Source: Bacillota bacterium
GTDB lineage: Bacteria > Bacillota > Sulfobacillia > Fermentithermobacillales > Fermentithermobacillaceae
Assembly: GCA_050260675.1 (NCBI GenBank)
Contig: JBLNCN010000011.1
Span: 745,197 to 809,196 of the forward strand
Direction: 5' to 3'
Length of the DNA: 64,000 nt
Notes under the pieces: model-generated
What the model was told of the DNA's origin: nothing
The model's input: the letters and a program-made list of their open reading frames with translations, nothing else
Databases searched by the model: none
Program-made: the position numbers and the translations under genes
Shown: piece by piece, positions 29,140 through 46,033 of the stretch
Layout of the letters: each line of letters starts with the position of its first letter
How positions within the stretch are numbered: position 1 is the stretch's first letter

Positions 29140-29164
29140 ACAATCCTCGCTTCATTATATACGC

Positions 29165-29494
29165 CTAAAGCCGCCCGAACAAGATTAGCGCTCCTATCAC
29201 CACAAATCCCGCTCCTGCTACAAGCCTGATGATGTGGGCAGGCACCACTCGGTACAAGGTGTCCCCCACCAGCACTCCAATCAGCGAGGAAAGCACCAAG
29301 GCTGACGCCGATCCCAGGAAAACGCTCCACGGGGCTTTCTTTGACGAAGCGAGCATCATTGTCGAAAGCTGCGTCTTGTCGCCAAGTTCTGCGAAGAACA
29401 CGGAAACGAACGTCGAAGCAACGATTCTCCAGTCCAATTCAGCGAGCCAGGACGGCTCGTCCCTCCCCTCTACCGCGAAAGGCGTCCGCACCAA
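29165..29494 (-). CDS. UPF0016 / GDT1 (TMEM165) family single-repeat membrane protein (putative Mn2+/Ca2+:H+ transporter half-unit)
   Basis: The E-x-G-D-K-T signature (FFAELGDKTQL) is followed by 3 TM segments. Confidence 0.7.
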   Translation of the reverse strand: MVRTPFAVEGRDEPSWLAELDWRIVASTFVSVFFAELGDKTQLSTMMLASSKKAPWSVFLGSASALVLSSLIGVLVGDTLYRVVPAHIIRLVAGAGFVVIGALILFGRL

Positions 29495-29552
29495 GCCGCG
29501 GACGCTCTTTCCTCATTTCGCTGTACCCTTGCCGGGAATCCTCCCTACCGGG

Positions 29553-30887
29553 TCACCATATCCCCAGAGCTTGAGCTCTTCTATCCAACACGTCGTTCAG
29601 GGTCGGCCGGCCGATCTCCTGCAACTCGTATCTTACCCTTGTGTGAGGTTTGTCGATCCTGGCAACCTTGGTGAGATCTATGGGGGTAGCGATTACCACG
29701 GCGTCGCATTCGGTCCTGCGGATTGTCTCCTCCAGGTCCTTCACCTGTTCGTCACCGTATCCCATTGCGGGCAAGAGGGTCCCGATCCCGGGGTACTTGC
29801 GGTAAGTGGCCTCAATGCTCCTCACCGCATACGGCCTCGGGTCCACAAGGCTCTTGCAGCGATACCGCTTTGCCGCCACAACGCCCGCACCGTACTTCAT
29901 CTCGCCATGGGTGAGCGTGGGACCGTCTTCTACTACCAGCACTTTCTTGTCCGTTATGAGATCCGGATCGTCGACAAAGATGGGCGACGCCGCTTCAACC
30001 ACGTCGGCGCTCGGGTTCAGGCGCCCAATTGTCTGGCGCACGCGGTCCACGCCTTCAGGCGAGGCAGTGTCGACCTTGTTGATCACCACGATATCGGCCA
30101 TCCGCAGGTTGGTCTCGCCCGGGTGGTAGGTTTCCTCGTGGCCGGGGCGATGTGGATCCACCAGGACAATATGGATATCCGGTTTGTAGAAAGGAAGGTC
30201 GTTGTTGCCCCCGTCCCAGAGCACGATATCGGCCTCTTGCTGGACCGAGTGCAGGATCAGCTGATAGTCTACGCCGGCCCACACGACCATACCCCTATCG
30301 ATGATGGGCTCGTATTCCTCCCGCTCCTCGATGGTGCACTTGTGTTTCACGAGGTCATCGTAGCTGGCGAAGCGTTGGGCGGCCTGCTCGCCGAGGTTGC
30401 CGTAAGGCATCGGATGCCTGACCGCGCTCACCCTCTTGCCCTTCTCCTTGAGGATGTCAAGGACCCTGCGGGTTGTCTGGCTCTTCCCCACGCCAGTGCG
30501 CACCGCCGTCACTGCTATCACGGGTTTGGTCGCCTTCAGCATGGTCGTGTCCGGCCCCATGAGCACGAAGTCCGGTCCCGAAGCCATCACCATCGATGCC
30601 TTGTGCATCACATATTCGTGGGGGACGTCGCTGTACGCGAATACCACCTTGTCTATCTGGTGCTTTTTAATGAGCTCGGGAAGGTCCTCTTCAGGGTAGA
30701 TGGGAATTCCCTGCTCATAACCTCCGCCTGCCAGTTCGGGAGGGTAAAGGCGGCCGGAGATATCGGGGATCTGAGTTGCCGTGAAGAACGCAACACGATA
30801 CTCGGGATTATTGCGGAAAAAGACATTGAAGTTGTGGAAGTCTCTGCCCGCGGCCCCCATGATGGCCACGTTCCTGGGTTTGTCCAT
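29553..30887 (-). CDS. Cyclic 2,3-diphosphoglycerate synthetase-like P-loop NTPase, paralog 2 (G3E-like GxGKS + NKxD motifs)
   Basis: VAIMGAAGRDFHNFN ... AVRTGVGKSQTTRRV ... DIVLWDGGNND ... IVVINKVD. About 60% identical by eye to 33130..34452. The family name is recalled from annotation practice and not verified. Confidence 0.5.
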   Translation of the reverse strand: MDKPRNVAIMGAAGRDFHNFNVFFRNNPEYRVAFFTATQIPDISGRLYPPELAGGGYEQGIPIYPEEDLPELIKKHQIDKVVFAYSDVPHEYVMHKASMVMASGPDFVLMGPDTTMLKATKPVIAVTAVRTGVGKSQTTRRVLDILKEKGKRVSAVRHPMPYGNLGEQAAQRFASYDDLVKHKCTIEEREEYEPIIDRGMVVWAGVDYQLILHSVQQEADIVLWDGGNNDLPFYKPDIHIVLVDPHRPGHEETYHPGETNLRMADIVVINKVDTASPEGVDRVRQTIGRLNPSADVVEAASPIFVDDPDLITDKKVLVVEDGPTLTHGEMKYGAGVVAAKRYRCKSLVDPRPYAVRSIEATYRKYPGIGTLLPAMGYGDEQVKDLEETIRRTECDAVVIATPIDLTKVARIDKPHTRVRYELQEIGRPTLNDVLDRRAQALGIW

Positions 30888-30956
30888 GCGCGCATCTCCT
30901 CACTTGCCGGATGGCTTGCCGGCTTGCTGACCGGCGATCTTACCGGTCTTTGCAGG

Positions 30957-32945
30957 TTACCCTGCGATTTCAGTCTCTTCGGTCCTGGGTGTCTTGACCC
31001 AAGCCTTTGGCTCCTTGCCTATGCTCCTAAGGAGCATGGCGCTGGTATAGGGCACAGGGAACACGAACGCAGCCAGGGGCAGCATGAGGAGCCCCAGGTA
31101 GACCAGGATCTGCCCGGCTAACGAATCGGGCTTGCCTGACTCGTCCAGGTACTTGGAATACCGCTTGAACGCGTAGAGGGTAAAGCCCAAGTAGATCACT
31201 GAGAAGGCGCTGAGGACCCACTGCCCTGGAGGTGGGACGATGCTCGGGTCCAAAAGCCCCTTATAGTGCAGCCCCATGGCGATGGGCGGGACGAATGTCG
31301 CTGCCTGATAGGCAACCCACTCGACCTGTCCTTTCACCAGGAGACTCATGTGGAGCCGGTCGCGCTTGCCGGGCTCCGTGTCCTCCCAACTGGCCACCTT
31401 TTCGACCACTTGAAGGTGTCCGGTTCCCCACCGGAGCCGCTGCCGGAAAAAGGCGCGGAAGGTTGGCGGCGTCTGCTCCGACGACATGTAGGGCAGGTAC
31501 TCCGGCCATGCGTTGCAGGCGAGGTACGCTCTCGCCCCGAATTCCAGATCCTCGGTGAGGACCGAGCAATCCCAACCCCCGACCTCGTGGAGCAGGTCTT
31601 TGCTCACAAACACGTTGGTCCCGCCGACAAAGGGCAGGGTCCTAAACAGCCACGGCAGGTACCAGTCGTGGGCGATTGCCTGGTAGAGCGAGGCGATCCT
31701 GCAGAATGGGGTCATCTGGTAGAAGTTGCGGACCTGAAACACTGGTCCCTGGAGCACTCTCGAACCCTCGGGATCAAGCATCCTCCGGTATCCCACATAG
31801 AGCAGTACATCCCTGGCGGGTCTGCTCTCTGCATCGTAGAAGCCGCAGACCTCTGTGCGCGGGTCAAGGAAGGCGATACCCCAGTTTAGGGCCCGCCCCT
31901 TGGTCGAGGGCACCACTTGCCCGGTTCTGACTCCTCCCAGCTTCCCATCGAAGTCGGCGGGCACGACCACGTGCTTAACGGGAGCCGCACCCTGACGGGT
32001 CGAGATCTCGCGCGTAGCCCTCTCCAGGGCTTCCTGGGTTGTTGGGTACATCTCAGTCACGGTGCGGGCAACTGCATCGGGGAGGTCCGTCCAGGCGGAT
32101 TTGCGGACGGCCTCTGCGACTCGGCCTGCGATGAAACCCGTCATACGGGTCACGATGTCGCGGGTGAGCTCGTGGTTCGCCTGCACCGTGTGGCGGATGG
32201 TCTTGTCCAGAGTCCGCCTGCTGGTCCCATCGGAGATCTCGGCAAACGCGGCGATTACCGGCACAGCGACCGCCAGACACGCGGGGTACACCCGGCCCTG
32301 ATCAAGCGGAGAGAGCCACCCGCAGGTCCGGGACACAATGGAGAACAGCCTCTTTCTAGGCGGAGCGCCGTGGGAGCCGGCGATGGCGATGCAGATATCC
32401 CGTATCATCTTGTGCCTCTCCTGAGCGGGCAACGCGGCCAGCTCCGGCACACTGACCGAATACTTCTTTTGAAATCCCTTGGACAGGTATTCGCGGAGAG
32501 CGTACTCGGATAAGATGGAGAGCAGAACGGCTCTCACGCAGGCCTCTTGTTCTTTCGGCAGTGGCTCCCTCTGCTCGCCCCGGAGTATCGACACGGCCGC
32601 GCTCGTGATTTTGGCGCGGTCCGCCTCCGCAGATTGGATTTCCTTTTCGTCGGTGACAACGACCACTTCAAAGCGATCAGCTGGGTACTCCAGGCGGGTC
32701 AGGTGCCTCACCGTGTTCTCAATAACCAGGGACTCATTCCTGGCCGGCACCATCACGCTCACGAACGGCACGTCCCTGCCCAGCGCCCGGGCGGTCTCCT
32801 TCAGATCGCTTTGCCGGAGTGTGAGCCGCCTGTTCCAGTATTTCCTATCGCTGTAGCTCTTCCAGACAAAGAACCTGGCAAAGAGCACGAAAAAGACCAG
32901 ATAGACCGAAAAAGCAACCATGTAGATGCTCTGGGCTGTCGTCAT
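30957..32945 (-). CDS. Processive family-2 glycosyltransferase, polytopic membrane protein, with about 200-aa cytoplasmic insertion in the catalytic domain
   Basis: N-terminal TMs, then VMVPARNESLVIENTV, the DxD region FYDAESRP and QRLRWGTGHLQ (QxxRW), then C-terminal TMs. The start was chosen at Met 32945 (AAGGGAGG RBS). Confidence 0.7.
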   Translation of the reverse strand: MTTAQSIYMVAFSVYLVFFVLFARFFVWKSYSDRKYWNRRLTLRQSDLKETARALGRDVPFVSVMVPARNESLVIENTVRHLTRLEYPADRFEVVVVTDEKEIQSAEADRAKITSAAVSILRGEQREPLPKEQEACVRAVLLSILSEYALREYLSKGFQKKYSVSVPELAALPAQERHKMIRDICIAIAGSHGAPPRKRLFSIVSRTCGWLSPLDQGRVYPACLAVAVPVIAAFAEISDGTSRRTLDKTIRHTVQANHELTRDIVTRMTGFIAGRVAEAVRKSAWTDLPDAVARTVTEMYPTTQEALERATREISTRQGAAPVKHVVVPADFDGKLGGVRTGQVVPSTKGRALNWGIAFLDPRTEVCGFYDAESRPARDVLLYVGYRRMLDPEGSRVLQGPVFQVRNFYQMTPFCRIASLYQAIAHDWYLPWLFRTLPFVGGTNVFVSKDLLHEVGGWDCSVLTEDLEFGARAYLACNAWPEYLPYMSSEQTPPTFRAFFRQRLRWGTGHLQVVEKVASWEDTEPGKRDRLHMSLLVKGQVEWVAYQAATFVPPIAMGLHYKGLLDPSIVPPPGQWVLSAFSVIYLGFTLYAFKRYSKYLDESGKPDSLAGQILVYLGLLMLPLAAFVFPVPYTSAMLLRSIGKEPKAWVKTPRTEETEIAG

Positions 32946-33129
32946 CTGCAGTGAGGGCCTCCCTTGGTCTGGGCGCAACTCTACATGCCCGCCAAATAGT
33001 GTTGCGCCTTGCCAGAGAGGCTATTCGCTTGCTCACGTCGAGCCAAAGGGCCGGCTTCCGAAGACTCCGCGCCAGCCCTTCGGGCTCCTTGGTCTATCCG
33101 AACTCTTCTTCGTCTATCTGAACTGCGGT

Positions 33130-34452
33130 CTAGATAATGCCGCCTACCATTTTGATCGCGTCTTCCAGGGTCGGGGCGCCGATCTCCTGGAGCTCGTAAC
33201 GCACTCTCATTGAAGGCCTATCAACCTTCATAACCCTACGGAGGTCAATCGGAGTGGCGACGATGACCAGGTCGCACGGCACCGCAGCCACCGTCTCCTC
33301 CAATTCTTTCACCTGCTTGGGCGAGTAGCCCATTGCGGGCAAGAGGGGCCCGATGTGGGGGTACTTCTCAAAAGTGGCCGCTATGCTGCCGACGGCGTAC
33401 GGTCTGGGATCGACGAGCTCGGCCGCTCCCCACTTCCTGGCCGCCATGACTCCTGCTCCGTAGCTCATCTCACCGTGGGTCAAGGTGGGACCGTCTTCGA
33501 TGACCAGAACTCTCTTGCCGGCGATCTCCAAGGGTCTCTCAGGGAACACCGGCGACGCCGCCTCGACCACGATGGCCTTGGGGTTAACCGACCGGACGTT
33601 ATTCCTGACCAGCTCGACGTTGGCGGCTTCCGCGGTGTCGACCTTGTTGATGACGACAATGTCGGCTTGGCGCAGGTTGGCTTCCCCGGGATGGTAGCCC
33701 ACTTCGTGGCCCGGCCTATGCGGGTCAACCAGGACTATCTTGCAGTCGGAACGGTAGAAGGGAAGGTCGTTATTGCCTCCGTCCCAAAGTACTACGTCTA
33801 CTTCCTGTTCAGCCCTCTTGAGTATCTCTCCGTAATCCACGCCGGCGTAGACGATGGTCCCCCGGTCCAGATGCGGCTCGTATTCCTCCCGTTCCTCGAT
33901 GGTGCACTTGTGGTGATCGAGATCGCTGTAGTCGGCAAACCGCTGGCACGCCTGGTCGGCTAAGTTGCCGTAGGGCATCGGATGCCGGATGGCGGCAACC
34001 TTCTTGCCTGCAGCCCTCAGGATCTCGGTGACCTTGCGGGTGGTCTGGCTCTTCCCGACGCCTGTCCTCACCGCGCACACCGATATCACCGGCTTGCTGG
34101 ACCGGATGGCAGTTGCCTCGTACCCCAACATGGTGAAATTGGGGCCCGCCGCCAACACGGCCGAAGCCTTATGCATTACGTTTGCATGGCTCTGATCGCT
34201 ATAGGAGAACACGACCTCGTCAACCTTGCTCTTCGAGAGTATGTCGGGAAGGTCTTCCTCAGCGTAGATCGGGATCCCGTCGGGATACAGCTTGCCCGCC
34301 AGCTTAGCGGGGTAGGTGCGTCCTTCGATGTCCGGGATCTGGGTTGCGGTAAAGCAGACCACTTCATAGTCAGGGTTGTCCCTGTAGACCGTGTTGAAGT
34401 TGTGGAAGTCGCGGCCGGCGGCTCCCATGATTACGATCCTCTTTTTCGCCAT
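33130..34452 (-). CDS. Cyclic 2,3-diphosphoglycerate synthetase-like P-loop NTPase, paralog 1
   Basis: IVIMGAAGRDFHNFN ... AVRTGVGKSQTTRKV ... VVLWDGGNND ... IVVINKVD. Same architecture as 29553..30887. Confidence 0.5.
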   Translation of the reverse strand: MAKKRIVIMGAAGRDFHNFNTVYRDNPDYEVVCFTATQIPDIEGRTYPAKLAGKLYPDGIPIYAEEDLPDILSKSKVDEVVFSYSDQSHANVMHKASAVLAAGPNFTMLGYEATAIRSSKPVISVCAVRTGVGKSQTTRKVTEILRAAGKKVAAIRHPMPYGNLADQACQRFADYSDLDHHKCTIEEREEYEPHLDRGTIVYAGVDYGEILKRAEQEVDVVLWDGGNNDLPFYRSDCKIVLVDPHRPGHEVGYHPGEANLRQADIVVINKVDTAEAANVELVRNNVRSVNPKAIVVEAASPVFPERPLEIAGKRVLVIEDGPTLTHGEMSYGAGVMAARKWGAAELVDPRPYAVGSIAATFEKYPHIGPLLPAMGYSPKQVKELEETVAAVPCDLVIVATPIDLRRVMKVDRPSMRVRYELQEIGAPTLEDAIKMVGGII

Positions 34453-34498
34453 TAGCTGACCCTCCGGTTATCTTTGTCTGGCGCTTTAGTCCAAGTCC

Positions 34499-35428
34499 CT
34501 ACATGACCAAAGCAAGCAGCGCTTTTTGAGCATGCAGCCTGTTCTCGGCCTCATCGAAGATCACGGATCTGGGGGAGTCGGCCACCTCTGCCGTGACTTC
34601 CTCTCCGCGATGCGCCGGCAGGCAGTGCATGAATACGGTGTCCTTGCCGGTCTTCTGCATCATGACGGCGTTGACCTGATAGGGAGCGAGTTTCGCCAAG
34701 CGGACCTCTCGCTCTTTCTCCTGTCCCATGCTGGTCCAGACGTCGGTGTAGACGATGTCGATGTCCCGCAGACCGCTGTCGGCGTCGTTAGTTACAACGA
34801 TCTTGCCTCCGTGGTGCGCGGCGTCCTCTGTGGCCAGCCTGGTGATCTCCTTGTCGGGTTCGTAGCCTGGCGCGCACACCACGCGGACCTCCATGCCCAT
34901 CTTGGCCCCACCGAACATGAGGGAGTGCGCGACGTTGTTTCCGTCTCCCACGAAAGCCAGCTTGAGCCCCTTCAGATATCCGAACTTCTCCTTGATCGTG
35001 AGGAGGTCGGCCAGGATCTGGACCGGGTGAGTCAGGTCGGTAAGGCCGTTGATCACCGGGACCCTGGAGTACTTGGCCAGGTCCTCCACGTCCTTGTGGG
35101 AGAACGTGCGGATCATGATTCCGTCGCAGTAGCGGCTTATGACCTGGGCTGTGTCGGAGATGGTCTCCCCGCGGCCCAACTGCAGGTCATTAACTCCCAG
35201 GTAGAGGGCATGACCGCCGAGCTGGGTCATGGCCACTTCGAAAGACACCCGCGTCCTGGTCGAGGGTTTCGAGAAGATCATCGCCAGCGTCTTGCCCGCC
35301 AGCGGAGTAGGACGGATGCCCGCGTAGAAGTTCGACTTCATGTTCCACGCGGTGTCGACCACGGTCTCGATGTCCTCTTTGGACCAGTCGTGAAGCCAGA
35401 GAAGATGCCTGCCCTTTAAGTTCTTCAT
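34499..35428 (-). CDS. Ornithine carbamoyltransferase (anabolic vs catabolic role not decidable)
   Basis: STRTRVSFE (carbamoyl-phosphate site), HCLPAHRGEEV and DVWTSMGQE. The start was trimmed to the Met at 35428 with a perfect AAGGAGG RBS. Confidence 0.85.
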   Translation of the reverse strand: MKNLKGRHLLWLHDWSKEDIETVVDTAWNMKSNFYAGIRPTPLAGKTLAMIFSKPSTRTRVSFEVAMTQLGGHALYLGVNDLQLGRGETISDTAQVISRYCDGIMIRTFSHKDVEDLAKYSRVPVINGLTDLTHPVQILADLLTIKEKFGYLKGLKLAFVGDGNNVAHSLMFGGAKMGMEVRVVCAPGYEPDKEITRLATEDAAHHGGKIVVTNDADSGLRDIDIVYTDVWTSMGQEKEREVRLAKLAPYQVNAVMMQKTGKDTVFMHCLPAHRGEEVTAEVADSPRSVIFDEAENRLHAQKALLALVM

Positions 35429-35462
35429 TCGAATCCTCCTTTGCGTACGGCCCCTGTGCCGC

Positions 35463-36551
35463 CTACATTGCATTTGTTGCGTTTACCCAGACCTCGCCCC
35501 TCATCTCCAGCTCTCTCCCGCACTTCGGGCATGATCCGCCCTCCAAGCGGGACTCCTCCAGTTCAAGGCCCCCTCGGGCCAGAAGAAGAGTGTGGCACTC
35601 GGGGCAGAGAGTGTCAGCGTAGCCCTTCTTCCACGCGTTGCCGATGTACACATAGTGGAGGTGTTCCCTCGCGATGTCGCGCAGGCGCTCCAGCGTACCG
35701 ACAGGCGTGGCGGGAGACTCGAACTTGTAGTTGGGGAAGTACCTCGACAGGTGCAGTGGAATGGACGGTGACAGTTGGTGAAGCCACCGCGCAAGGCCGC
35801 CAACATCCTCGTCCCTGTCGTTCTCACCGGGTATGACCAGGTAGGTTACCTCGACCCAAGCCTGCTCTACAGCCTGCTCCACTGCCCTCATAACCGGTGC
35901 CAGGCGCCCTTTCACAGTCCTGCGGTAGAACTCCTCGGTCCACCCCTTCACGTCGATGTTCAGCGCGTCCACGAGTGGGAGCGCTTCCGAGAGAGCTTCA
36001 GTAGATATGTACCCGTTGGTGATAAGGACGTTGCTAAGTCCGGCCTGCTTGGCCAGGGCCGCGGTATCGAGGATGAACTCCATGAACACTGTTGGTTCAT
36101 TGTAGGTGTAGGCGATGCCTGTAACCCGCGGGTGCTTGCGCTTTTGTTCTAAGGCCAGGTCGACCACTTGGGAAGGCGTGGCCCTGTACAGATTAGGCCG
36201 CTCCTGGGATATTTGCCAGTTCTGGCAGAACAGGCACCCGAGGTTGCACCCGTAGGACCCTACCGAGAACAGGTAGCTGCCGGGGTGGAAGTGGTATAGC
36301 GGCTTCTTCTCGACGGGATCCAGAGCGAGTGAAGACAGGAGCCCGTAGTTCATGCTGTAGAGGACCCCGTCTCTCACTTCGCGGACGCCGCACACACCTG
36401 TCTTGTCAGAGAGGATGACGCAGCCGTGGGGGCACAGACGGCACCTGACGGCTCCGTCCTCCTGCTTCTCCCAGAACCGGGCCTTCCGTAGTTCCACCGC
36501 AGCGCCCCTCTCACAAATCCCCGGGCAGTAAACTACCAGCCATCGCCCCAC
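35463..36551 (-). CDS. AmmeMemoRadiSam-system radical SAM enzyme
   Basis: An N-terminal Cys cluster CRLCPHGC precedes the radical SAM motif GCNLGCLFCQNW. It sits adjacent to the MEMO1/AMMECR1 gene. Confidence 0.8.
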   Translation of the reverse strand: MGRWLVVYCPGICERGAAVELRKARFWEKQEDGAVRCRLCPHGCVILSDKTGVCGVREVRDGVLYSMNYGLLSSLALDPVEKKPLYHFHPGSYLFSVGSYGCNLGCLFCQNWQISQERPNLYRATPSQVVDLALEQKRKHPRVTGIAYTYNEPTVFMEFILDTAALAKQAGLSNVLITNGYISTEALSEALPLVDALNIDVKGWTEEFYRRTVKGRLAPVMRAVEQAVEQAWVEVTYLVIPGENDRDEDVGGLARWLHQLSPSIPLHLSRYFPNYKFESPATPVGTLERLRDIAREHLHYVYIGNAWKKGYADTLCPECHTLLLARGGLELEESRLEGGSCPKCGRELEMRGEVWVNATNAM

Positions 36552-36578
36552 AGGGAACCTCGACCGACGCGAGATACG

Positions 36579-37988: not shown

Positions 37989-37991
37989 GCC

Positions 37992-39062
37992 TTACTGCAC
38001 CACCTTTTGCACGAACGGAGAGGTCGCCGCCCTAAGAAGCGCGCTGTAGCCGGGGATGAACGTAAGGACGTCGCCTGTCTTGATCTTGCGCTCCGAGTCC
38101 TCGACATCGCAAATGAGGTGGTCTGATGACGCGCCGATGATGCTTACCCCGCTCTCCACGGGGCGGAGCGAGTCCGGGTCAACGTCCTGACGCCCGACGG
38201 CGAGTATAGCCCGCCTGCGCCGCCCTCTATCCTCGAACGTGAGGACCACCCCAAAGGCGTTCTGGCCTACTCGCCCAAAGGGTACAGAGGGCTTCTCCTG
38301 CACCTCGATCACTTCTGCGGCCACCCTGAACGCGTTCAGGTGACATCCTGGGACAGCCGAGCGCTCGACGGCTTCGGTGCCCAGGAGTATGCTCTCGCCT
38401 ATCCTGAGTTCGGTCACACCGTGGGGAGTCTCTCCCCTAAGGACCATAGGCATGTTGGCCGAATTGCCCCCGGATACGCGCTGAAGGGGCCGGCCAAGCG
38501 CGGCTTCTATGTTCTCTCTGACCTCAAGGAGCATCTCCATCTTCTCGCGGGTAGGGATGACCCCCCCGTAGCAGGCAAGGTTGGTCCCAATGCCGATGAG
38601 TTCCGCACCGGTAACCTGCGCCATTTCCTTGGCGATCCTGACAGCGTTCTCGGTCAAGACTCCCTCTCTCAGGTCACCCAGGTCAACCATCAGGATCACA
38701 CCGTGGCGCTTCCCCAGCCGGATCGCCGCCTCTCCCAAGAGCCGAACGGTGGCCGGATCGGAGTTGAGGCTTACATCCGCTACCTGGACCGCCTCTGCGG
38801 CGCGGGAAGGGGACGGAGCGCGGAGCAGCACGGTCTCCCCTTCGTAGCCGAGGTTGCGGAGGTTGCGCAGCGTTTCGGTCCTCGAGTCGCCGATGGCGGC
38901 TGCGCCTCCGTCGACCATAGCCTTGGCAACCGCGACGTGCCCCATCACACCTTTTGCCACGCCGACTAGGCGCATCCCCTGCCGCCCCAGGAGGCCGGAT
39001 ATGACCCGTGTGTTGTGGCGGACCTTCTCCGTATCTATATACAGCGCGGGATGGGTGATCAT
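37992..39062 (-). CDS. orr: Alanine-racemase-fold PLP enzyme, probable ornithine racemase
   Basis: GVAKGVMGHVAVAKAM ... VSGGNSANMP, in operon context with oraSE/ortAB/ord. The start was placed at Met 39062 (ATGA overlap with the upstream stop). Confidence 0.6.
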   Translation of the reverse strand: MITHPALYIDTEKVRHNTRVISGLLGRQGMRLVGVAKGVMGHVAVAKAMVDGGAAAIGDSRTETLRNLRNLGYEGETVLLRAPSPSRAAEAVQVADVSLNSDPATVRLLGEAAIRLGKRHGVILMVDLGDLREGVLTENAVRIAKEMAQVTGAELIGIGTNLACYGGVIPTREKMEMLLEVRENIEAALGRPLQRVSGGNSANMPMVLRGETPHGVTELRIGESILLGTEAVERSAVPGCHLNAFRVAAEVIEVQEKPSVPFGRVGQNAFGVVLTFEDRGRRRRAILAVGRQDVDPDSLRPVESGVSIIGASSDHLICDVEDSERKIKTGDVLTFIPGYSALLRAATSPFVQKVVQ

Positions 39063-40423
39063 CGCAACTCCAAGCTCCTTAGCAGAATCTGCCTTGCTTC
39101 GTCCGGATACTCGCGGGAAAGGACGCCGCATGAAGCCATAATATACCGTGTGTCCAGGAAGACCGCGGCATCCTTGGGATAAAGCTCCCTGCCGGGACCC
39201 TGCCCTACAAGCTCCCTGAGGGTATCTTCTCCTCCCGGAAGCTTGGTGAGCGCACCTCCCGTTCCGATCACGGTCCTCACACTGGAGAGGTCTTTGCCCA
39301 AAGCCACGGTCTGCCTGCCGGAAGGCCCGTACAGGTACTTGATCCTTCCTGCGTGGCGGCCAAATGCGGTCCTCGCCGCGTAAGCGGAGAAGTACACAAG
39401 CATCCGCACCATTTCCGGGTCCGTCGGGACGACCTGAAGCCGCCCGAGGAGCGTGCCGGGATCAAACCCCAGGTCCCGTTCGGCCTCATCTTTGACCTGC
39501 TGGTAGATGTTCGCGGCGTTGACGTGGATGCCGAGGTCTCCCTCGACAGTCCGTTTCGCCAACGGCTCGGGGCTTTCCAGGATTGACTGGATCTCGGGGC
39601 TGCCTTTCGCGACCGAGTGGACGTCGGTTGTGGCGCCGCCGATATCCAGCGCGCAGAGATCACCTAGGACCGGGTGCAGCATTTTGCAAGCTTCCATCAC
39701 CGCTCCCGGAGTGGGCATTATGGGGCCGTCCACCATGTCGCGAATCCTGTCCATGCCCGGGGCTCCGGTTATGTGCTCTTCAAAGACTTCCTGGATGACA
39801 GCCCTGGCCGGCTCCACAACAAGCTCGTCAACTCTGGGATAGACGTTGTCGACGAGGTAGACTTTGATGCCGGAGGCCTCAAGGATGCCCCGGACCTCGT
39901 CCTGGGCTGCCACGTTCCCGGCGTATATCACGGGGACCTTAAGGCCGCTTCCGGCCAGCAGCTTGGCGTTATTCACGGCCGTGTCCCGCTCGCCGTAGTC
40001 GACTCCGCCCGCCAGCATTATGATCTTGGGCCGGAGCGATGTAAGGCGGCTAAGGTCGCTCTCGGTTATGTCGCCGGCGGTGACCATGCGCACAACCGCG
40101 CCGGCACCCAGCGCCGCTTCCTTGGCCGCTCTCACGGTCATGTCATAGACGAGTCCGTGGACTGTCATCGAGAGCCCGCCGGCGGCGCTCGACGCCGCCA
40201 TCATCCGTCCCCACATCAGCTCCTCGGGAGCGCCCTGGCTCTCGGGGCTCAGCCTCCGGGACAAATCTCCCACCGCAGCGGATAGTCCTATCGTGACGTC
40301 ACCCTGCTCCACAGTTGTGAGTGACATGCCTTGCCCCAGGAGAGCGGGACTGCTCCCAAGGCTGAACGCGCTCACGACCGTGGTGGTGCTCCCTATTTCG
40401 GCGACCAAGGCATCGACTCTCAT
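39059..40423 (-). CDS. GlmL/MutL-family protein (putative B12-enzyme reactivase/accessory factor of D-ornithine aminomutase)
   Basis: Actin/Hsp70-like fold motifs DIGGATTDVHSV and IGTGGALT, located directly after oraE. The start was moved to Met 40423. Confidence 0.55.
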   Translation of the reverse strand: MRVDALVAEIGSTTTVVSAFSLGSSPALLGQGMSLTTVEQGDVTIGLSAAVGDLSRRLSPESQGAPEELMWGRMMAASSAAGGLSMTVHGLVYDMTVRAAKEAALGAGAVVRMVTAGDITESDLSRLTSLRPKIIMLAGGVDYGERDTAVNNAKLLAGSGLKVPVIYAGNVAAQDEVRGILEASGIKVYLVDNVYPRVDELVVEPARAVIQEVFEEHITGAPGMDRIRDMVDGPIMPTPGAVMEACKMLHPVLGDLCALDIGGATTDVHSVAKGSPEIQSILESPEPLAKRTVEGDLGIHVNAANIYQQVKDEAERDLGFDPGTLLGRLQVVPTDPEMVRMLVYFSAYAARTAFGRHAGRIKYLYGPSGRQTVALGKDLSSVRTVIGTGGALTKLPGGEDTLRELVGQGPGRELYPKDAAVFLDTRYIMASCGVLSREYPDEARQILLRSLELR

Positions 40424-40431
40424 GGCGGCCT

Positions 40432-42663
40432 CTAGCCGTTCCCCCTGTCTTTGGGGAGCTTGCCTTTCCCCTCTTTCCACAGTTCCTGGCGCTTCTTGCA
40501 CAGGAACGACGCGACGTGTATCCCCTTGGTGCCGCGGCCAAAACCGGCATCCAGTCCGGCCGCCACCGCCAGTTCATTTGTTACCTGGGTCCCGCCGCCG
40601 ACCAGCATGAACTGGTCCCGAACGCCTTTCTCCCTGCAGAGCATGTTCAGGCGCTCCATGTTCTTCCTGTGGATGTCGGCGTGGCTGATGATGGTGGATA
40701 TGAGGATAGCGTCGGCGTCTTCCTCGATGGCTGCGTCGACCACCTTGTCGATGGAGACTGACGTGCCCAGGTAAGTCGCCCTAATGCCAAACCCCTCGAT
40801 GCCCCCGTGTTTGATGTCGATGATCTCGCGCATCCCTACCGAGTGCTCATCCTCGCCTACAGTGGCGCATACGACCTTCATGGGGTTTTTGCGGATGTCC
40901 TCCCGTATCTCCTCGGCCGAAAGCACTTCCGGCTTCTCGGGTATTTTGAGCGAGTTCCTGTCTATGGAGAAAGGAAGCCGCGCCTTGATCTCAACCAGAG
41001 TGCCCTCGGCCGGATGAGCGATGCCTTTGTGGATGACCTCCGGCTCCAGGAGTCCGAGCTTGCGCGCCATTTCCAGAGCGGCGTACTCGGCTATCCGCTC
41101 GCTTTCGGCTATGAAGATGGTGAGGGTCAGGTATCCGTCGTTGGCCCACTGAACCTCGGGTTTTATGGCGCCGGTGGCCAGTTCCTTCGCGACCGGTGCG
41201 TACCTTCGCTCCACGTTATCCTCGGGATCGAGTTCGTCGATGAAGACTATCTTGTCGCGATCGCACAGGGTACAGCCGTCTATCAGCGCGCATGGCCGGG
41301 AGCTGTCGCCCGGCAGGTTGTTGTAGCCGAAGTGGTGGCACACGGGGGCCATGTAGTCGCCGTCGCGGGGGACGATGCTGGATGCGGCTATCCCGCCCAT
41401 TGGGTCCCTGCGTATGCCGTCGCCGTTCCTCTCGGGGTACAGTCCCGAGTCCACGAACATACCCTGCTCTACCGCCCGGAAGTACCCCATCTCCTTGACT
41501 TCCTCCAGGTACAGCACCGCGCGTTCCGCCAATTCCCGTACCTTCGCCGGGAGAGGACCGTCCTTGCGAAGCTCAACCATTTCGAGGATCCCGTCCATGC
41601 CAAGGAGGGTCTGCTTGGCGGTGTCTACAGCCGCCAGGTTGTTATAGTGCCAGGGGACATTGCGGCCTTCGTCCGGCGTGATGGTGCTCTGGACGTCGGC
41701 GGAAGTTAGCCGAGACAGCACCAAGTTCATGGTGTGAGTCACCGTGGCTTCGCGGGAGTCCGATTCAATGTACCTGGTATTCTGCTGAGCCCTGATCTTG
41801 TAGTCCGAGAACAGCCACCTTACCGCCACGGCATAGGGTAGGTCGTAGGACATGGCAGGAGCAGGCGGCGCGGTCGGCGGCACGCTGGAAAGGGCGATGT
41901 GGTCCGGGGCCATTCCGATCATCTTTGAGTACGCGCAGTTTATGGCGTGCTGCACCAAAAGCTCGGGCATCACTTTCCAGGCTTCCCTCGCCGTCGCGTT
42001 GGCGTTGTGGGCCCCGTCTATCTGCAGTATCCCGGCGTCTGCCATGATCTTCTTGGCCACGGCGGCATCCACGAAGGACCGCTCCATGTTGACGTTGCGG
42101 TAAAGCACGTTGTACTGGGGGTCTTGATGTGCGCCGTTCACGCCCTCTTCAGCGAACAGCACCGCTATCTCGGGTCCCGCCACTCCCGAAACGTAGGAAT
42201 GGAAGTTCAGGGGCCGGCCCACCTCGTCTTCGATGAGGTCGAGGGCCTTTCTGGTCGCCCTGAGCTGCTTCCTGGTGATCGGAATGCCGCCCACGCCCTC
42301 GGGAGTCCCCTCCAGAAGGCCGTCAATGTGGCTTTGGCCCGTAGTGCGGATGACCATCATGTGGTCGGCGCCGTGCCAGGCTGCCATCCTCATGCGCCTT
42401 ATGTCGTCCTCGAAACGCCCTGAGGCTATCTCGGTGGTGATCACGTAGTCGGGCTGGGGATCGAGCCCCCCGAAGTACTTGGCGGCCGGAAGGGGCACTG
42501 ACCTGTGCAAAGGAGCTGAGGTCTCCTTGTACGTGAAGGGGCCGACCTTCTGGTCCGGTATCTTCGTGCGCCAGGTCCACCCTGTCCGCCTCGGGTGGTA
42601 GTGCTCAAGGTCCTTAAGGACCTCTCCTATATCTATCTTGCGGTTGGGGTCGAGGCGCTGCAT
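40432..42663 (-). CDS. oraE: D-ornithine 4,5-aminomutase subunit E (PLP + adenosylcobalamin)
   Basis: 743 aa. Contains the C-terminal B12-binding DxHxxG (GEDEHSVG) and ...VGGG. Preceded by the small OraS partner. Confidence 0.8.
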   Translation of the reverse strand: MQRLDPNRKIDIGEVLKDLEHYHPRRTGWTWRTKIPDQKVGPFTYKETSAPLHRSVPLPAAKYFGGLDPQPDYVITTEIASGRFEDDIRRMRMAAWHGADHMMVIRTTGQSHIDGLLEGTPEGVGGIPITRKQLRATRKALDLIEDEVGRPLNFHSYVSGVAGPEIAVLFAEEGVNGAHQDPQYNVLYRNVNMERSFVDAAVAKKIMADAGILQIDGAHNANATAREAWKVMPELLVQHAINCAYSKMIGMAPDHIALSSVPPTAPPAPAMSYDLPYAVAVRWLFSDYKIRAQQNTRYIESDSREATVTHTMNLVLSRLTSADVQSTITPDEGRNVPWHYNNLAAVDTAKQTLLGMDGILEMVELRKDGPLPAKVRELAERAVLYLEEVKEMGYFRAVEQGMFVDSGLYPERNGDGIRRDPMGGIAASSIVPRDGDYMAPVCHHFGYNNLPGDSSRPCALIDGCTLCDRDKIVFIDELDPEDNVERRYAPVAKELATGAIKPEVQWANDGYLTLTIFIAESERIAEYAALEMARKLGLLEPEVIHKGIAHPAEGTLVEIKARLPFSIDRNSLKIPEKPEVLSAEEIREDIRKNPMKVVCATVGEDEHSVGMREIIDIKHGGIEGFGIRATYLGTSVSIDKVVDAAIEEDADAILISTIISHADIHRKNMERLNMLCREKGVRDQFMLVGGGTQVTNELAVAAGLDAGFGRGTKGIHVASFLCKKRQELWKEGKGKLPKDRGNG

Positions 42664-43034
42664 GCCCGCTCACCTCCGAACGAAGCCTTCAGCTCGTCCC
42701 ATCCCTTGCCGTTGGCAAGGTCGCGTCCGGCCTCGAGGTACTCTTTGCCTGTCTCTTGCGCGTACCGGAGCACAAGGTGCCCCGCTCCCTTGCCGAGGAG
42801 GCCCCGCTTCTCAGCAGCGCTGACAATGGCGGCTGCCTCCAGGCTGGAAAACCCCATGCGCAGGAGCACTGACCGCTCGATAGAAGGCGAAGTATGGTTG
42901 TATGCGAGATCGTAAAGAGGCTTCACAATATCCTCGGCCAAGCGCCAGAACCTTTCTTTCAGTTGCTCGTCAGAGAGGCCTCTTAAGTGCTCGCGCCGTT
43001 TCTCGAAATCTGATGGCCGCCCCACCGCGCTCAC
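42633..43034 (-). CDS. oraS: D-ornithine 4,5-aminomutase subunit S
   Basis: 133 aa helical protein, translationally coupled to oraE and ortB. Confidence 0.75.
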   Translation of the reverse strand: MSAVGRPSDFEKRREHLRGLSDEQLKERFWRLAEDIVKPLYDLAYNHTSPSIERSVLLRMGFSSLEAAAIVSAAEKRGLLGKGAGHLVLRYAQETGKEYLEAGRDLANGKGWDELKASFGGERACSASTPTAR

Positions 43035-44440
43035 CTCACTCTTACGCCGAGTTCCCCCAGCATCCTGGCGGTATCCGCCTCGGTCTGGGATGAGTCCTCG
43101 GCGAGGAATTTGACTTCTTCCGGACCTGCTTCCCGAAGATTGTTCTTCTCAACGGCGTTTCGGATATACGACCTTCTCATCCTCGTCAGGTCCATTTCGG
43201 TGACATGCAGCTGGTCGAACCGCTCGGGTATCACGATGGCTTTGCCCGGCACGTTGTCCTTTGGATCGCCGCGCCTGACCTCCACCCCGTTCCTGCGGGC
43301 AAAGTCCAGTTGCGCCTGAGGATGCTTGCCGGCGCCGGTGTACTCGGTCTCCTGCACCACTACTATCTCGTCATGGGGGAGTTCCCTGGCCAGGGGGATC
43401 GCTGCCGCCAGCGACGTGTTACCGGCGGGTCCTCTTTCCATGCCTTCGACGGTGGAGAGCGCCTCGGTCACATAGAAGACCTCGCCCTGGGTGACGGTGA
43501 CGTACCTATCCAGATACCTTAGGGGTCTCGCGGCGTTCCGGGGGACGTCTGTCCTGTCTGGCCAGGTGGCGAAAGGCACCCCGAAGCCGGTGTGCCCGGT
43601 GGTGAAGGATTTCCTGTTGAAGTCGTGGTCCGACGCCATATGGAGCCCCGATAGGTCTACACTGGCGCCAATGACTTTGGTGTTAAGGGCGCCCGCTCTG
43701 CGCAAGCCTCTGGCAGTGCCGGTCACGTTTCCGCCGCCTGCATGGGTGACCACCACGTACGCGGGGTCCTTGCCGTAGCGCTCGCGGACGTCCCTGACCA
43801 GCTCCCATCCCAGGGTCTCGATGCCGGCGATGCCGAACGAGCTGTACAAGGAAGCGTTGAAGTACCCGGTCTCTTCGAGGAGTTTCAAAGCGACGTAGAA
43901 CAGCTCCGGGCCGACAGTAAGCTGGATCACTTCAGCCCCGTATGCCTCGCACTTCCTGGACTTCTCGATGATCTCCGGCTGGCCGACCTGCCGGGAGTCG
44001 AACACTTCCTGGACGATGATGCATCCCAGATTGCGCATGGCAGCCTGGGACGCCACAGCCGCGCCGTAGTTGCCGCTGGTGGCCGCAAGCACTCCCGGAT
44101 AACCGGCCTTCTTAGCCTGGTAGGTCGAGATGGACGACCGCCTGTCTTTGAAGCTGCCCGAAGGGTTGGCCGCCTCGTCCTTCACCAGGATCCTGGCGCC
44201 ATACCCAGGCTTTGAAGTCATCCTGACCAGTTCGGTGATATTCTTCAGCTCCAGGAGCGGCGTGTCGCCGACGCCCACGTCCTTTTGGATCTTCCTTACT
44301 TCCTCAAAGGGATAGGCGGCCTTGGTCATCATGGCTTCGTAATCAAACGCGATGCCGCCGGTCTCGAACTCGCCGTACTCTACGCCCAAGGCCTTCCTCA
44401 TGATCTCGGCCCTGCGAGCCATAACCGCAGCGTAGGACAT
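43031..44440 (-). CDS. ortB: 2-amino-4-ketopentanoate thiolase beta subunit (PLP, Trp-synthase-beta fold)
   Basis: PLP-lysine motif SGSFKDRRS, the glycine loop HAGGGNVTG. The start was trimmed to MSYAAVMARRAEIM; the 69-aa Arg-rich track extension is spurious. Confidence 0.8.
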   Translation of the reverse strand: MSYAAVMARRAEIMRKALGVEYGEFETGGIAFDYEAMMTKAAYPFEEVRKIQKDVGVGDTPLLELKNITELVRMTSKPGYGARILVKDEAANPSGSFKDRRSSISTYQAKKAGYPGVLAATSGNYGAAVASQAAMRNLGCIIVQEVFDSRQVGQPEIIEKSRKCEAYGAEVIQLTVGPELFYVALKLLEETGYFNASLYSSFGIAGIETLGWELVRDVRERYGKDPAYVVVTHAGGGNVTGTARGLRRAGALNTKVIGASVDLSGLHMASDHDFNRKSFTTGHTGFGVPFATWPDRTDVPRNAARPLRYLDRYVTVTQGEVFYVTEALSTVEGMERGPAGNTSLAAAIPLARELPHDEIVVVQETEYTGAGKHPQAQLDFARRNGVEVRRGDPKDNVPGKAIVIPERFDQLHVTEMDLTRMRRSYIRNAVEKNNLREAGPEEVKFLAEDSSQTEADTARMLGELGVRVR

Positions 44441-44448
44441 GTCCCTAC

Positions 44449-44760
44449 TCAAACGCCCCTCCCCCTTTTCAGCATCGCCCGGAGTTCCTGGGCGATTGGG
44501 GCAAGTTCGGGCACCAAAGGCCCGTAGGTGTGGGCGTAGCCTGGGTCCAATCGCGTGAGGGTGCCGGTGACGATCCTTCCGGCTTGGGTTTCTATCTCGA
44601 CTTCCTCTCCCACCGCCGCCTCGCCGCGGGCGCGTCCCTTGATCCACGCCTCGAGAGGCACTTTGCTTGTGTCATCGGGGACGCCTGCTGCCCGCTCTCC
44701 CACAGGCAGAATCACTTGGTGTATCTCAACCAAGTCTCCCACCCTGCATCTTGCGTCCAT
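44449..44760 (-). CDS. ortA: 2-amino-4-ketopentanoate thiolase alpha subunit
   Basis: About 100 aa, immediately upstream of ortB with a 6-nt gap to ord. Confidence 0.75.
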   Translation of the reverse strand: MDARCRVGDLVEIHQVILPVGERAAGVPDDTSKVPLEAWIKGRARGEAAVGEEVEIETQAGRIVTGTLTRLDPGYAHTYGPLVPELAPIAQELRAMLKRGRGV

Positions 44761-44766
44761 CCCCGG

Positions 44767-45819
44767 TCACCTCCCCTTATCCATCCCTGTTGCCGTCCTC
44801 AAGGACGACGAGAGGATGGCCCTGGGCACCGGGAGGTCGGCCATGGTAACGAGGCCCGGCCTGGCCGCGGTAACCAGCGGGATCATGTTCACAGCCGCGG
44901 CGATGGTGCCGATGCCGCCGGGGATCTCAGGCTTTATCGATAGGTTGACAGGCGGATCGCCCTGGATAGTGATGTAGTCGCCCGTGTCCACTCCCTCGGC
45001 TTCCGGGCAGATCTGCTGCGGGTGCTCCAGGAAGATAACCTCGCGTTCGCCGGCGTAGGCCCTTGCGGTGTGCCTGCATCCGGCCACATTTCCAGGCATC
45101 ACGTGGGCGTAGCGGGTCTTTCTTTCAATGTTGGTGATGATCGGTTCCCGCTCCTCAACCACCTTGTCGATTTTCCAACCCAGAGCTTCCCCAATCATGT
45201 AGATGGACTGCTGGAAGCCGACATGGCCAACGATGTCGCCGCTCTCGATCCCCTTCTTGAACTCGTCGGGCGTTGTCCCGACGCCCTGGGTCCTCATGAC
45301 CGTGGGACCAAACGGCGCAAGGTCGTTCACTCTCTTGGCGTAGATGTGGCGGACGTCCCGGCAGATGCCCGTAAGCGAGATCACCAGCGTGTCCAGAACA
45401 AATCCGGGGTTGATGCCGGTCCCGAGCACGGTCTTCCCTGCCGCCTTAGCGAGCGCGTCCATCTTCTTCGATAGGTCGGGCTCAACCGCCCAAGGGTAAG
45501 CCATTTCCTCCGCGATGGTGACTACGTTGCATCCGTGCTCCAACGCTGAGGTGATGTGAGGGAATACATCGGTAACGAATGAGGAGGTGGCAATCACAAC
45601 TATGTCTGGTTTCGCGGCGAAAGCATCATCGAGGTTGCTGGTCACCGTCACTCCGGCCCGGCCTGCCCCCAGGAGTTCTCCGAGGTCCCTACCCACTTTG
45701 GACGCATTCTGCTCGAGAGCGGAGACGACTTTGAGTCCATCCTTCTTCAGTAGGAGTTCAGCCATCCCGCTGCCCATTGCTCCGAGGCCCCAAAGCATCA
45801 CTCTAGTTTCCGTGGGCAT
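44767..45819 (-). CDS. ord: 2,4-diaminopentanoate dehydrogenase (DapB-like NAD(P) oxidoreductase)
   Basis: Rossmann motif [12 protein letters not shown] and a DapB-like C-terminal domain. The start was placed at Met 45819, 7 nt after a GAGGTGA RBS. Confidence 0.75.
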
Positions 45820-46033
45820 CGTTTCACCTCTCTTCAAGTTTTAGGGGAACATTTTCGTTAGGAGTCTGCCCATACGGACCGCATTTCTCCTACCTTATGC
45901 ATTCTTGCATATAAAGGAAAATCCTGCTGCTGTCGGACCTAGGGTGGTGGCGGAGCTACCCCGGGCCCCCTCGGCACGTGTCAACCTCCCCATCAGCAAA
46001 ATCAGAACCCGTCGTTCTGCCCATCGATAATCC

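Follow-up and report, generated by a model that had tools for sequence, protein, structure and literature searches.

AMMECR1 and Memo-family proteins, distributed from archaea to humans, are to our knowledge still without a biochemical function, and a reproducible metabolic context for them would be useful for that reason. The 64,000-nucleotide stretch of Bacillota DNA analysed here (the window) carries an AmmeMemoRadiSam gene pair directly behind an ornithine-degradation operon and directly before a gene for ornithine carbamoyltransferase (OTC). The question raised by this locus is whether such a neighbourhood tells us what the pair does, as an initial annotation had proposed, or where in the chromosome the pair resides. 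No functional study of AmmeMemoRadiSam, AMMECR1 or COG2403 was found in the literature searched, which for AMMECR1 alone covered work since 2021. We compared the window with approximately 170 related loci (designated by L numbers) obtained from genome and metagenome scans, taking the best 80 of 600 stretches in each; the fractions reported below are estimates from biased samples, and the neighbour-joining (NJ) trees carry no support values. The comparison confirms the observation made in the initial annotation in part, and likewise gives its interpretation partial support.

Results

Gene content and spacing of the array

Fourteen co-directional protein genes run on the minus strand, to which all features described below belong, from ord (start at 45819) to a GDT1 gene (ending at 29165). 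The initial annotation had given the number as 15, although its own list also contains 14 genes; every gene that it named was found in its place and on this strand, with families assigned by profile scores. Using starts that fit homologue lengths and Shine-Dalgarno sites, the gaps from ord to orr are 6, −4, −4, −31, 8 and −4 nt, the orr-fusion gap is 3 nt, as had been read before, and the gaps from the fusion gene to the GDT1 gene are 81, 34, 46, 184, 69 and 115 nt. Start/stop overlaps are visible in the sequence as TTGA (ortA/ortB), GTGA (ortB/oraS) and ATGA (or4/orr). In contrast, a reported 11-nt overlap of the OTC gene with the radical SAM gene is an artefact of taking the longest open reading frame, since the likely start, ATG at 35428, preceded by AAAGGAGG, leaves a gap of +34 nt and yields a protein of 309 aa, like that of L087.

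Downstream of the GDT1 gene, the same strand carries a tRNA-Arg(CCG) gene (29063..29139; detected by ARAGORN and Rfam), a gene for an NYN-domain protein as the next co-directional protein gene (28416..29042; PF01936, 97 bits), an FMN-binding gene and an M19 dipeptidase gene; upstream of the array, cwlD, rpsI and rplM also lie on it. Shared orientation thus holds for the region as a whole and does not set the array apart.

The ornithine-degradation operon

The seven genes at the head of the array are ord, 2,4-diaminopentanoate dehydrogenase (44767..45819; NF040740, 533 bits, cut-off 400), which starts at ATG 45819 with a Shine-Dalgarno site; ortA, a thiolase subunit (44449..44760; NF040739, 111 bits, cut-off 70); ortB, the PLP-dependent thiolase subunit (43031..44452; NF040741, 835 bits, cut-off 550), starting at TTG 44452 (473 aa, as in L087) or ATG 44440; oraS, the small subunit of D-ornithine 4,5-aminomutase (42633..43034; PF16552, 163 bits); oraE, its B12/PLP large subunit (40432..42663; NF040743, 1309 bits, cut-off 800); the GlmL-related ornithine degradation gene Or-4 (39059..40423; NF040744, 616 bits, cut-off 600); and an orr-like PLP racemase gene, probably for ornithine racemase (37992..39062; PF01168, 90 bits). 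The last has an alanine-racemase fold and the conserved final place in the operon, and scores 381 bits against an NF040742 cut-off of 480.

This order and the tight spacing are canonical, and the same order was seen in most of the 80 metagenome loci (best 80 of 600). The cluster of Clostridium sticklandii and C. difficile, as Fonknechten et al. (2009) are cited for it in PMC8803604, consists of the same seven genes in identical order and with tightly coupled spacing; six of the window's genes pass the cut-offs of their models (NCBIfam equivalogs for ord, ortA, ortB, oraE and Or-4, PF16552 for oraS). The window differs from it in the divergent orr (381 vs 480 bits), in the placement of the operon after rplM-rpsI-cwlD, and in its unbroken continuation into a LigB-AMMECR1 fusion gene, a radical SAM gene, OTC and a P-loop GTPase gene. 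Under the published scheme for oxidative (Stickland-type) ornithine degradation (PMC8803604), the operon would convert L-ornithine to D-ornithine (Orr), then to 2,4-diaminopentanoate (OraSE), to 2-amino-4-oxopentanoate (Ord), and finally to acetyl-CoA and alanine (OrtAB).

About 75 nt upstream of ord lies a palindromic element, TATGCAAGAATGCATAA (45895..45911), which is conserved at the same place before ord in L087, L001, L086 and L088. The window contains no further match, and at least one match was found in 41 of 100 shuffles, which is chance level; the element is a candidate for an operator or promoter that serves the ornithine operon. Its identification as an ARG box was dropped, given that its half-site order and spacing differ from those of the ARG-box consensus.

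The LigB-AMMECR1 fusion and its radical SAM partner

The gene after orr (36579..37988) encodes a LigB/TK2203-type domain of the PCAD-Memo superfamily (PF02900, 124 bits) fused to AMMECR1 (PF01871, 151 bits). We scored it with the models that define AmmeMemoRadiSam, namely TIGR04335 (protein A), TIGR04336 (protein B) and TIGR04337 (radical SAM enzyme). The AMMECR1 part, residues 304-468, reaches 134 bits with TIGR04335 (cut-off 99). The N-terminal half, previously labelled MEMO1, gives only a partial match of 22.4 bits to TIGR04336 (AmmeMemoSam_B; cut-off 26); its Pfam family is instead LigB and its best PDB match TK2203, the PDB matches of the fusion being 5hee and 1vaj. By these profiles, the fusion corresponds to protein A of AmmeMemoRadiSam, its N-terminal half being B-like. 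We counted 7382 homologues; the invariant residues of the N-terminal domain (H13, H57, D186, H189 and C236) presumably resemble the Memo site.

The adjoining gene (35463..36497) encodes the PflA-like AmmeMemoRadiSam radical SAM enzyme (TIGR04337, 312 bits, cut-off 220), with the motif CNLGCLFC (CxxxCxxC), so that its earlier assignment as radical SAM partner holds. The window thus has adjacent A-domain and radical SAM genes that both pass curated cut-offs, but differs from the three-component system in having no separate B gene, the LigB/TK2203-type domain fused to A standing in its place. This two-gene form is common in Bacillota, and the pair is stable: the radical SAM gene lies beside the fusion gene in 56 of 70 loci (best 80 of 600). 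The Shine-Dalgarno site of the fusion gene lies inside orr, an arrangement that is kept together with the 3-nt junction in L087; in L081 the two genes overlap.

OTC and the P-loop proteins

The OTC gene (34499..35428) is of argF type, with scores of 431 bits for TIGR00658 (cut-off 281) and 443 bits for NF001986 (cut-off 306), and its product clusters with arg-operon OTCs in the NJ tree. It is followed by P-loop1 (33130..34452), a conserved 440-aa predicted GTPase whose homologues, 70-96% identical, bear the database name "cDPGS"; in the tree it is the orthologue of the single copy of relatives. P-loop2 (29553..30887) is, according to the tree, an old paralogue with 65% identity, common to the window and L087, which groups with the copies of L029 and L090.

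The initial annotation had described a cDPGS-like module. P-loop proteins are present, but their likeness to cDPGS is remote. They share a P-loop fold and similar length with cDPGS (PDB 8ORK, 9SXB) and the G3E GTPases (HypB, CobW, MeaB), and weak local matches fall around an NKxD-containing segment; GVGKS and NKVD motifs were seen by eye. The similarity is marginal: 25 bits to PDB cDPGS (E = 6e-5) over about 110 of 440 residues, and 24-26 bits to PF02492 (24 bits for P-loop1; cut-off 20.7) over profile positions 113-180 only, and no NCBIfam model passed for these proteins. On such matches, "cyclic 2,3-diphosphoglycerate synthase" is not supported as the function of the P-loop GTPase. A role as B12 chaperone for OraSE was also rejected; the gene accompanies OTC in the absence of an ornithine operon in L029, and occurs in an unrelated context in Anaerolineae (L084).

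In the arginine deiminase pathway, OTC (ArcB) and carbamate kinase (ArcC) serve citrulline and arginine catabolism. The window resembles this module in having OTC beside ornithine-consuming genes, and an AA_kinase-family gene precedes OTC in L100, L112 and L128. It differs in that no carbamate kinase was found within the 64 kb, and in that its OTC belongs to the arg-operon type and has a conserved P-loop GTPase for a neighbour. Among 33 other ornithine operons sampled (best 80 of 600), orr is followed by OTC in 8 and by a P-loop GTPase in 6, sometimes with a carbamate-kinase-like gene; both are commoner there than the pair, found in 1. A modest reading of this pattern is that, in citrulline/ornithine catabolism, OTC and carbamate kinase may have a partner not recognised so far, the 440-aa P-loop GTPase.

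A conserved hairpin and the extent of the operon

The region ord to GDT1 had been described as one operon of 16.7 kb. The genes are indeed all co-directional, with a largest gap of 184 nt; their order is kept in L087, and a scan for consensus promoters and terminators gave no site in any intergenic gap of the array, with totals at shuffle level. This includes the orr-fusion junction, at which a promoter or terminator would have separated the two gene sets; an ad hoc search for TTGnnn-N16-18-TAnnnT, covering 400 nt before the start of the fusion gene, also found nothing. Rfam (gathering threshold for the whole window; E ≤ 5 for 29000-33300) returned tRNA only, with no riboswitch in the gaps.

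However, the 184-nt gap after P-loop1 folds strongly (z = −4.3). Its first hairpin, GC-rich (33040..33095; −30.3 kcal/mol) and just 3′ of P-loop1, recurs at the same position in all five relatives (L001, L081, L086, L087 and L088); a U-rich tail follows it in L081, L086, L087 and L088 but is absent in the window, and a conserved motif, CGAATAG..GGCGCAACACTA, comes after it. The hairpin may act as a terminator or as a 3′ stabiliser, and a transcription unit may end at this point. The spacing also shifts after the fusion gene, from −31..+8 nt to 34-184 nt, the presence of GT2, P-loop2 and OTC varies among relatives, and co-directionality extends far past both ends of the array. Because of the conserved hairpin, it is doubtful that ord through GDT1 form a single polycistronic operon, and at least two transcription units are suggested.

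Beyond the hairpin lie a membrane GT2 glycosyltransferase gene with a long insert (30957..32945; PF13632, 62 bits; PF13641, 42 bits), P-loop2 and the single-repeat GDT1/UPF0016 membrane protein gene (29165..29437; PF01169, 84.5 bits; 90 aa, as in L081 and L087). GT2 follows the P-loop gene in L001, L081 and L086-L088, with the order reversed in L090. The tRNA-Arg(CCG) gene keeps its place in L001, L081 and L086-L088, and the NYN gene is conserved in relatives. The group GT2-P-loop2-GDT1, the tRNA gene and the NYN gene are probably separate units.

The chromosomal address of the pair

Upstream of the array lie the backbone genes rplM, rpsI and a cwlD-like amidase gene (47268..48967; PF00572, PF00380, PF01520). 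The same trio is upstream in L001, L029, L086-L088, L090 and L128. Among the best 80 of 600 stretches, cwlD lies at most 3 kb upstream of the pair in 10 of 67 loci and at most 10 kb upstream in 17 of 80, ecfA/T-truA-rplM-rpsI precedes the pair in 7-8 loci, and arg genes follow it in 10 of 48, about a fifth of Bacillota pair loci. L029 has the layout of the window minus the ornithine genes (ecfT-truA-rplM-rpsI-cwlD-fusion-radical SAM-OTC-P-loop). Conversely, L100 and L128 carry rplM-rpsI(-cwlD)-ornithine operon-AA_kinase-OTC-P-loop at the same rplM-rpsI site, with the pair absent. These arrangements suggest that the pair was already at its address before the ornithine genes, which makes the orr-fusion junction a weak clue to the pair's function.

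Both gene sets occur together in L001, L081, L086-L089, partly L090, L054 and L112, so that the co-occurrence called for by the earlier proposal exists. A single clade retains the entire block, with fusion identities as low as 51%, and there are two more distant cases of linkage; the pair lies between ornithine catabolism and OTC/arg genes in at least nine contigs. In L054 the fusion is 43% identical to that of the window and an arginase gene stands between orr and the fusion gene; in L112, which has AA_kinase-OTC-P-loop, it is 39% identical. Nevertheless, of 49 species representatives whose upstream flank reaches 8 kb or more (best 80 of 600), only 2 have an ornithine operon ahead of the pair and the other 47 have none beside it, and the pair-linked operons mostly occupy a single part of the fusion tree and of the OraE tree. 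Neither arg nor ornithine genes were found at the sampled Chloroflexota loci in the tblastn matrix (best 80 of 600).

Discussion

We consider it fairly probable that the pair was resident first, that the ornithine genes were inserted beside it, and that it is a positional passenger. The array would then be a mosaic on a conserved Bacillota chromosomal address. Its resident unit would be the LigB/Memo-superfamily-AMMECR1 fusion gene with the PflA-like radical SAM gene, a pair located in many Bacillota between rplM-rpsI-cwlD and arginine-biosynthesis genes. We infer that in an ancestor of the window's clade (Ca. Fermentithermobacillaceae, going by the names of the nearest P-loop homologues) the ornithine operon came to lie between cwlD and the pair, bringing with it the conserved element upstream of ord. 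The argF-type OTC and P-loop GTPase genes would form a module that accompanies ornithine operons elsewhere, often with a carbamate-kinase-like gene, and that plausibly supplies ornithine from citrulline, if OTC runs in that direction. With a 3-nt gap and its Shine-Dalgarno site inside orr, the pair has no room for its own promoter, so that transcripts from the ornithine promoter probably extend into it, with the pair as a passenger rather than a pathway component.

The initial annotation instead took the coupling as a functional lead. The juxtaposition is real, tight and conserved, but the lead is weak, because linkage is rare (2 of 49 and 1 of 33) and mostly confined to one tree region, because the pair's address occurs without the ornithine operon (L029), and because L100 and L128 keep ornithine-OTC-P-loop genes at the same site without the pair. 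We consider it unlikely that selection keeps the pair in the operon for a role in the ornithine, citrulline or arginine metabolism of Bacillota, be it the modification, maturation or repair of an enzyme of the pathway or an action on one of its metabolites. Such a role would explain the position of the pair between ornithine catabolism and OTC/arg genes in at least three divergent lineages, together with the arg-operon neighbours in about a fifth of sampled loci, and the 3-nt gap or overlap in the window, L087 and L081, the conservation of the block and the recurrences in L054 and L112 agree with it. However, adjacency to arg genes is expected from inherited synteny near the ribosomal-protein cluster, the sampled Chloroflexota loci showed neither context in the tblastn matrix, and no biochemical function of the pair was found in the literature searched. 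As for the more specific proposal of cofactor maturation for OraSE or OrtAB, nothing specific supports it, and 47 of the 49 pair loci are without an ornithine operon. A transferable block, made up of ornithine genes, pair and OTC/P-loop and passed from lineage to lineage, would account for L054, which the OraE tree puts in a separate clade, and for L112, which lies outside the core clade and L089, their fusions being only 39-43% identical to that of the window. Yet the flanks of L054 are of backbone type with an arg operon downstream, its fusion groups with those of L004 and L021, both with cwlD upstream, no mobility genes lie beside the block in the window, and fusion and OraE identities fall in parallel with those of backbone genes, leaving such transfer highly improbable.

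Some observations do not sit easily with the passenger reading. The nine or more contigs in which the pair is sandwiched, including the distant L054 and L112, are more than a single accident. Retention of the tight junction implies obligatory co-expression and counts against a passenger, and the arg adjacency could be functional and not only inherited.

Together, these comparisons suggest that the ornithine context of the AmmeMemoRadiSam pair is largely a chromosomal-position effect in one Bacillota clade, and it should therefore be given little weight. What can be used is the fixed Bacillota address rplM-rpsI-cwlD-pair-arg genes, the recurrent extension of ornithine operons by OTC, carbamate-kinase-like and P-loop GTPase genes, and the evidence against the cyclic 2,3-diphosphoglycerate synthase label on this GTPase.

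Composition and spacing of the array

The array comprises 14 protein genes on the minus strand between positions 45819 and 29165 of the window, which has a G+C content of about 60% and a GC skew that stays negative over its whole length. The products of ord, ortA, ortB, oraE and the GlmL-related Or-4 gene (or4) each score above the NCBIfam equivalog cut-off, OraS matches PF16552, and the ornithine set ends with an orr-like gene, whose product has an alanine-racemase fold and reaches 381 bits against the Orr model (cut-off 480). The pair under study comes next. Its first member (36579..37988) encodes a 469-aa fusion with AMMECR1 as the C-terminal half (TIGR04335, 134 bits) and an N-terminal half matching Pfam LigB (124 bits) and the solved TK2203 protein; the latter half reaches 22.4 bits against the AmmeMemoSam_B model, under the cut-off of 26. 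The second encodes the AmmeMemoRadiSam radical SAM enzyme (rSAM; 35463..36497, 312 bits). Ornithine carbamoyltransferase (OTC, 431 bits), the 440-aa P-loop1 (33130..34452), a membrane GT2 glycosyltransferase (30957..32945), P-loop2 (29553..30887; a 444-aa paralogue of P-loop1, 65% identity) and a single-repeat GDT1 protein complete the array. The P-loop proteins pass none of the NCBIfam models, and their resemblance to cDPGS is marginal (E = 6e-5 over about 110 residues).

Gene starts were set by Shine-Dalgarno sites, by the model position at which each match begins and by comparison with the lengths of called homologues. The resulting gaps are 6 nt from ord to ortA, −4 nt from ortA to ortB, −4 nt to oraS, −31 nt to oraE, 8 nt to or4, −4 nt to orr, 3 nt to the fusion gene, 81 nt to rSAM, 34 nt to OTC, 46 nt to P-loop1, 184 nt to GT2, 69 nt to P-loop2 and 115 nt to GDT1. 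The initial annotation was largely right about the array but needs correcting in its count of fifteen genes, a miscount of its own list of 14, and in an 11-nt OTC overlap, which was the product of a longest-ORF reading. Co-directionality is not specific to the array because the same-strand run extends beyond both ends, through cwlD, rpsI and rplM upstream and through tRNA-Arg(CCG) (29063-29139), NYN, FMN-binding protein and M19 dipeptidase genes downstream. The tRNA gene, between GDT1 and NYN, has a TATAAT-like box 12 nt upstream.

Elsewhere in the window, also on the minus strand, lie a BREX-like defence island of lower G+C (4155-12778, 52-54%; BrxA-like, PglZ, PglXI-type methyltransferase and BrxC/PglY, the last two at 850 bits each) and, downstream of peptidase genes, a chemotaxis cluster (14523-20981; CheA, CheB, CheR and small neighbours).

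Transcription signals

A consensus scan placed a promoter or terminator in none of the array's gaps, including that between orr and the fusion gene, the division which the initial annotation had singled out and where no hairpin comparable to the one described below occurs. Upstream of ord, a 17-nt palindrome, TATGCAAGAATGCATAA (45895-45911), recurs at the same place in L087, L001, L086 and L088, four of the related loci compared with the window (L-numbers), and we infer that it is part of the ornithine operon promoter or operator; its single match in the window is at chance level, at least one match being found in 41 of 100 shuffles.

Compared with shuffles, the P-loop1-GT2 gap forms a far stronger fold (z = −4.3). 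At the position of its first hairpin (33040-33095), all five relatives also have a hairpin, though with a different sequence, and in L081, L086, L087 and L088 a U-rich tract comes after it. The single 16.7-kb transcript initially proposed is doubtful because this hairpin region looks like a unit boundary. Downstream of the hairpin lie a conserved motif, CGAATAG..GGCGCAACACTA (window 32946-33039, minus; L087 14774-14934; L081 9324-9495), and another hairpin preceding GT2; this region could be a leader or promoter element and has no match in Rfam.

Conservation of the block in the clade

The same block was recovered in four loci by looking up homologues 51-69% identical in the fusion. The order in L086, L087 and L088 is truA-rplM-rpsI-cwlD-ord...orr-fusion-rSAM-OTC-P-loop-GT2-(P-loop2)-GDT1-tRNA-Arg-NYN; L081, whose organism has been widely sampled, begins at ortB and follows this order without OTC. 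The tRNA-Arg(CCG) gene holds the equivalent place in L001, L081, L086, L087 and L088. Two further cases are partial: L089 runs ord...orr-fusion-rSAM before genes on the opposite strand, and L090 (5725-9961) has ortA-ortB-or4-orr before the fusion gene but lacks ord, oraS and oraE. This reduced cluster is a decayed operon or else represents another version of the pathway; the rSAM, AA_kinase, GT2 and P-loop genes of L090 follow at a distance of 4-10 kb. Block loci and partial cases form one group in a neighbour-joining tree of the fusion (without support values), with L054 placed elsewhere; L009 falls inside this group, yet has OTC and GT2 without ornithine genes.

Within the clade, the half-size GDT1/UPF0016 protein always follows the GT2 enzyme (window 29165-32945, minus). 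Eukaryotic GDT1/TMEM165 supplies Mn2+ to glycosyltransferases, and by analogy a cation-supply role is conceivable.

Upstream, the window has rplM-rpsI-cwlD, with a plus-strand GNAT gene and two tandem-repeat arrays between cwlD and ord (46034-46224, 31 nt × 6.1 copies, 83% matches; 46298-46374, 14 nt × 5.5 copies), both between the GNAT gene and ord. The closest relative, L087, appears to lack all three, having only about 220 nt and no called gene there. In the window, the ecf/ribosomal block is separated from rplM by genes for a MalT-like LuxR regulator (895 aa) and an AMP-binding-like protein (48981-53174, minus), unlike L086-L088 and L090, where truA directly precedes rplM.

Neighbours of the pair and of orr in other genomes

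The fusion architecture is widespread (7382 matches at E<1e-10). Flanks were counted from tblastn matrices and neighbour clustering, with crude ORF calling, in the best 80 loci (10-kb flanks) of a one-genome-per-species scan, a biased sample in which the fractions are estimates: rSAM lay beside the fusion gene in 56/70 loci, a cwlD-like amidase within 3 kb upstream in 10/67 and within 10 kb in 17/80, ecfA/ecfT-truA-rplM-rpsI further upstream in 7-8, arginine-biosynthesis genes downstream in 10/48, cdaA-cdaR-glmM downstream in 4-5, and an ornithine operon upstream in 2/49 (L001 and L054). The order in L029, ecfT-truA-rplM-rpsI-cwlD-fusion-rSAM-OTC-P-loop, is the window layout minus the ornithine genes.

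Scanning metagenomes with an OraE alignment yielded a similarly biased set, the best 80 ornithine operons, and among the 33 with at least 1.5 kb after orr, OTC followed in eight, a P-loop GTPase in six and the pair in one, L112, where AA_kinase, OTC and P-loop genes come after the pair. L100 and L128 carry rplM-rpsI(-cwlD) upstream of ord and an AA_kinase-family gene before OTC, with the pair absent; in L054 an arginase separates orr from the fusion gene. The OraE neighbour-joining tree places the pair-linked operons (core clade and L089) beside L112, L100, L128 and L130, and L054 separately, while the window OTC groups with arg-operon OTCs (neither tree has support values). Some ornithine operons carry a second OTC type.

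A carbamate-kinase-like AA_kinase, OTC and a 440-aa P-loop GTPase recur directly after orr in operons not closely related to the window (L100 14641-18042; L128 15023-18692; L112 16971-20506; L120, L122, L137). The recurrence points to a module feeding ornithine from citrulline, in which the P-loop GTPase, 'cDPGS' in databases, would have an unrecognised role.

Positional or functional association

The initial annotation saw in the coupling to ornithine fermentation a functional lead for the AmmeMemoRadiSam system, and the co-occurrence in other genomes on which it made that reading depend was found in L086-L088, L081 and L089, also in L001, L054 and L112. The lead itself is weak, with the operon upstream of the fusion gene in 2/49 loci and the pair after orr in 1/33. 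We consider it somewhat probable that the pair is a positional passenger: it would long have occupied a conserved address close to the ribosomal-protein cluster and adjoining arg genes, where in one clade the ornithine-degradation operon would have been inserted between cwlD and the pair, leaving OTC and the P-loop GTPase, its commoner partners, on the pair's other side. The 3-nt gap and the Shine-Dalgarno site inside orr make expression of the pair by read-through probable.

The same junction, implying obligatory co-expression, counts against a passenger, as do the distant recurrences in L054 and L112 and the frequency of arg genes near the pair; a true link to ornithine/arginine metabolism is possible on these grounds, and we judge it unlikely. 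Our literature search gave no biochemical function for AMMECR1 or the AmmeMemoRadiSam system; Burroughs and colleagues reportedly proposed, in 2019, connections with the modification of nucleotide bases and of isoprenoids. In this arrangement a known operon, in a form specific to the lineage, is joined to an orphan system that was itself already known.
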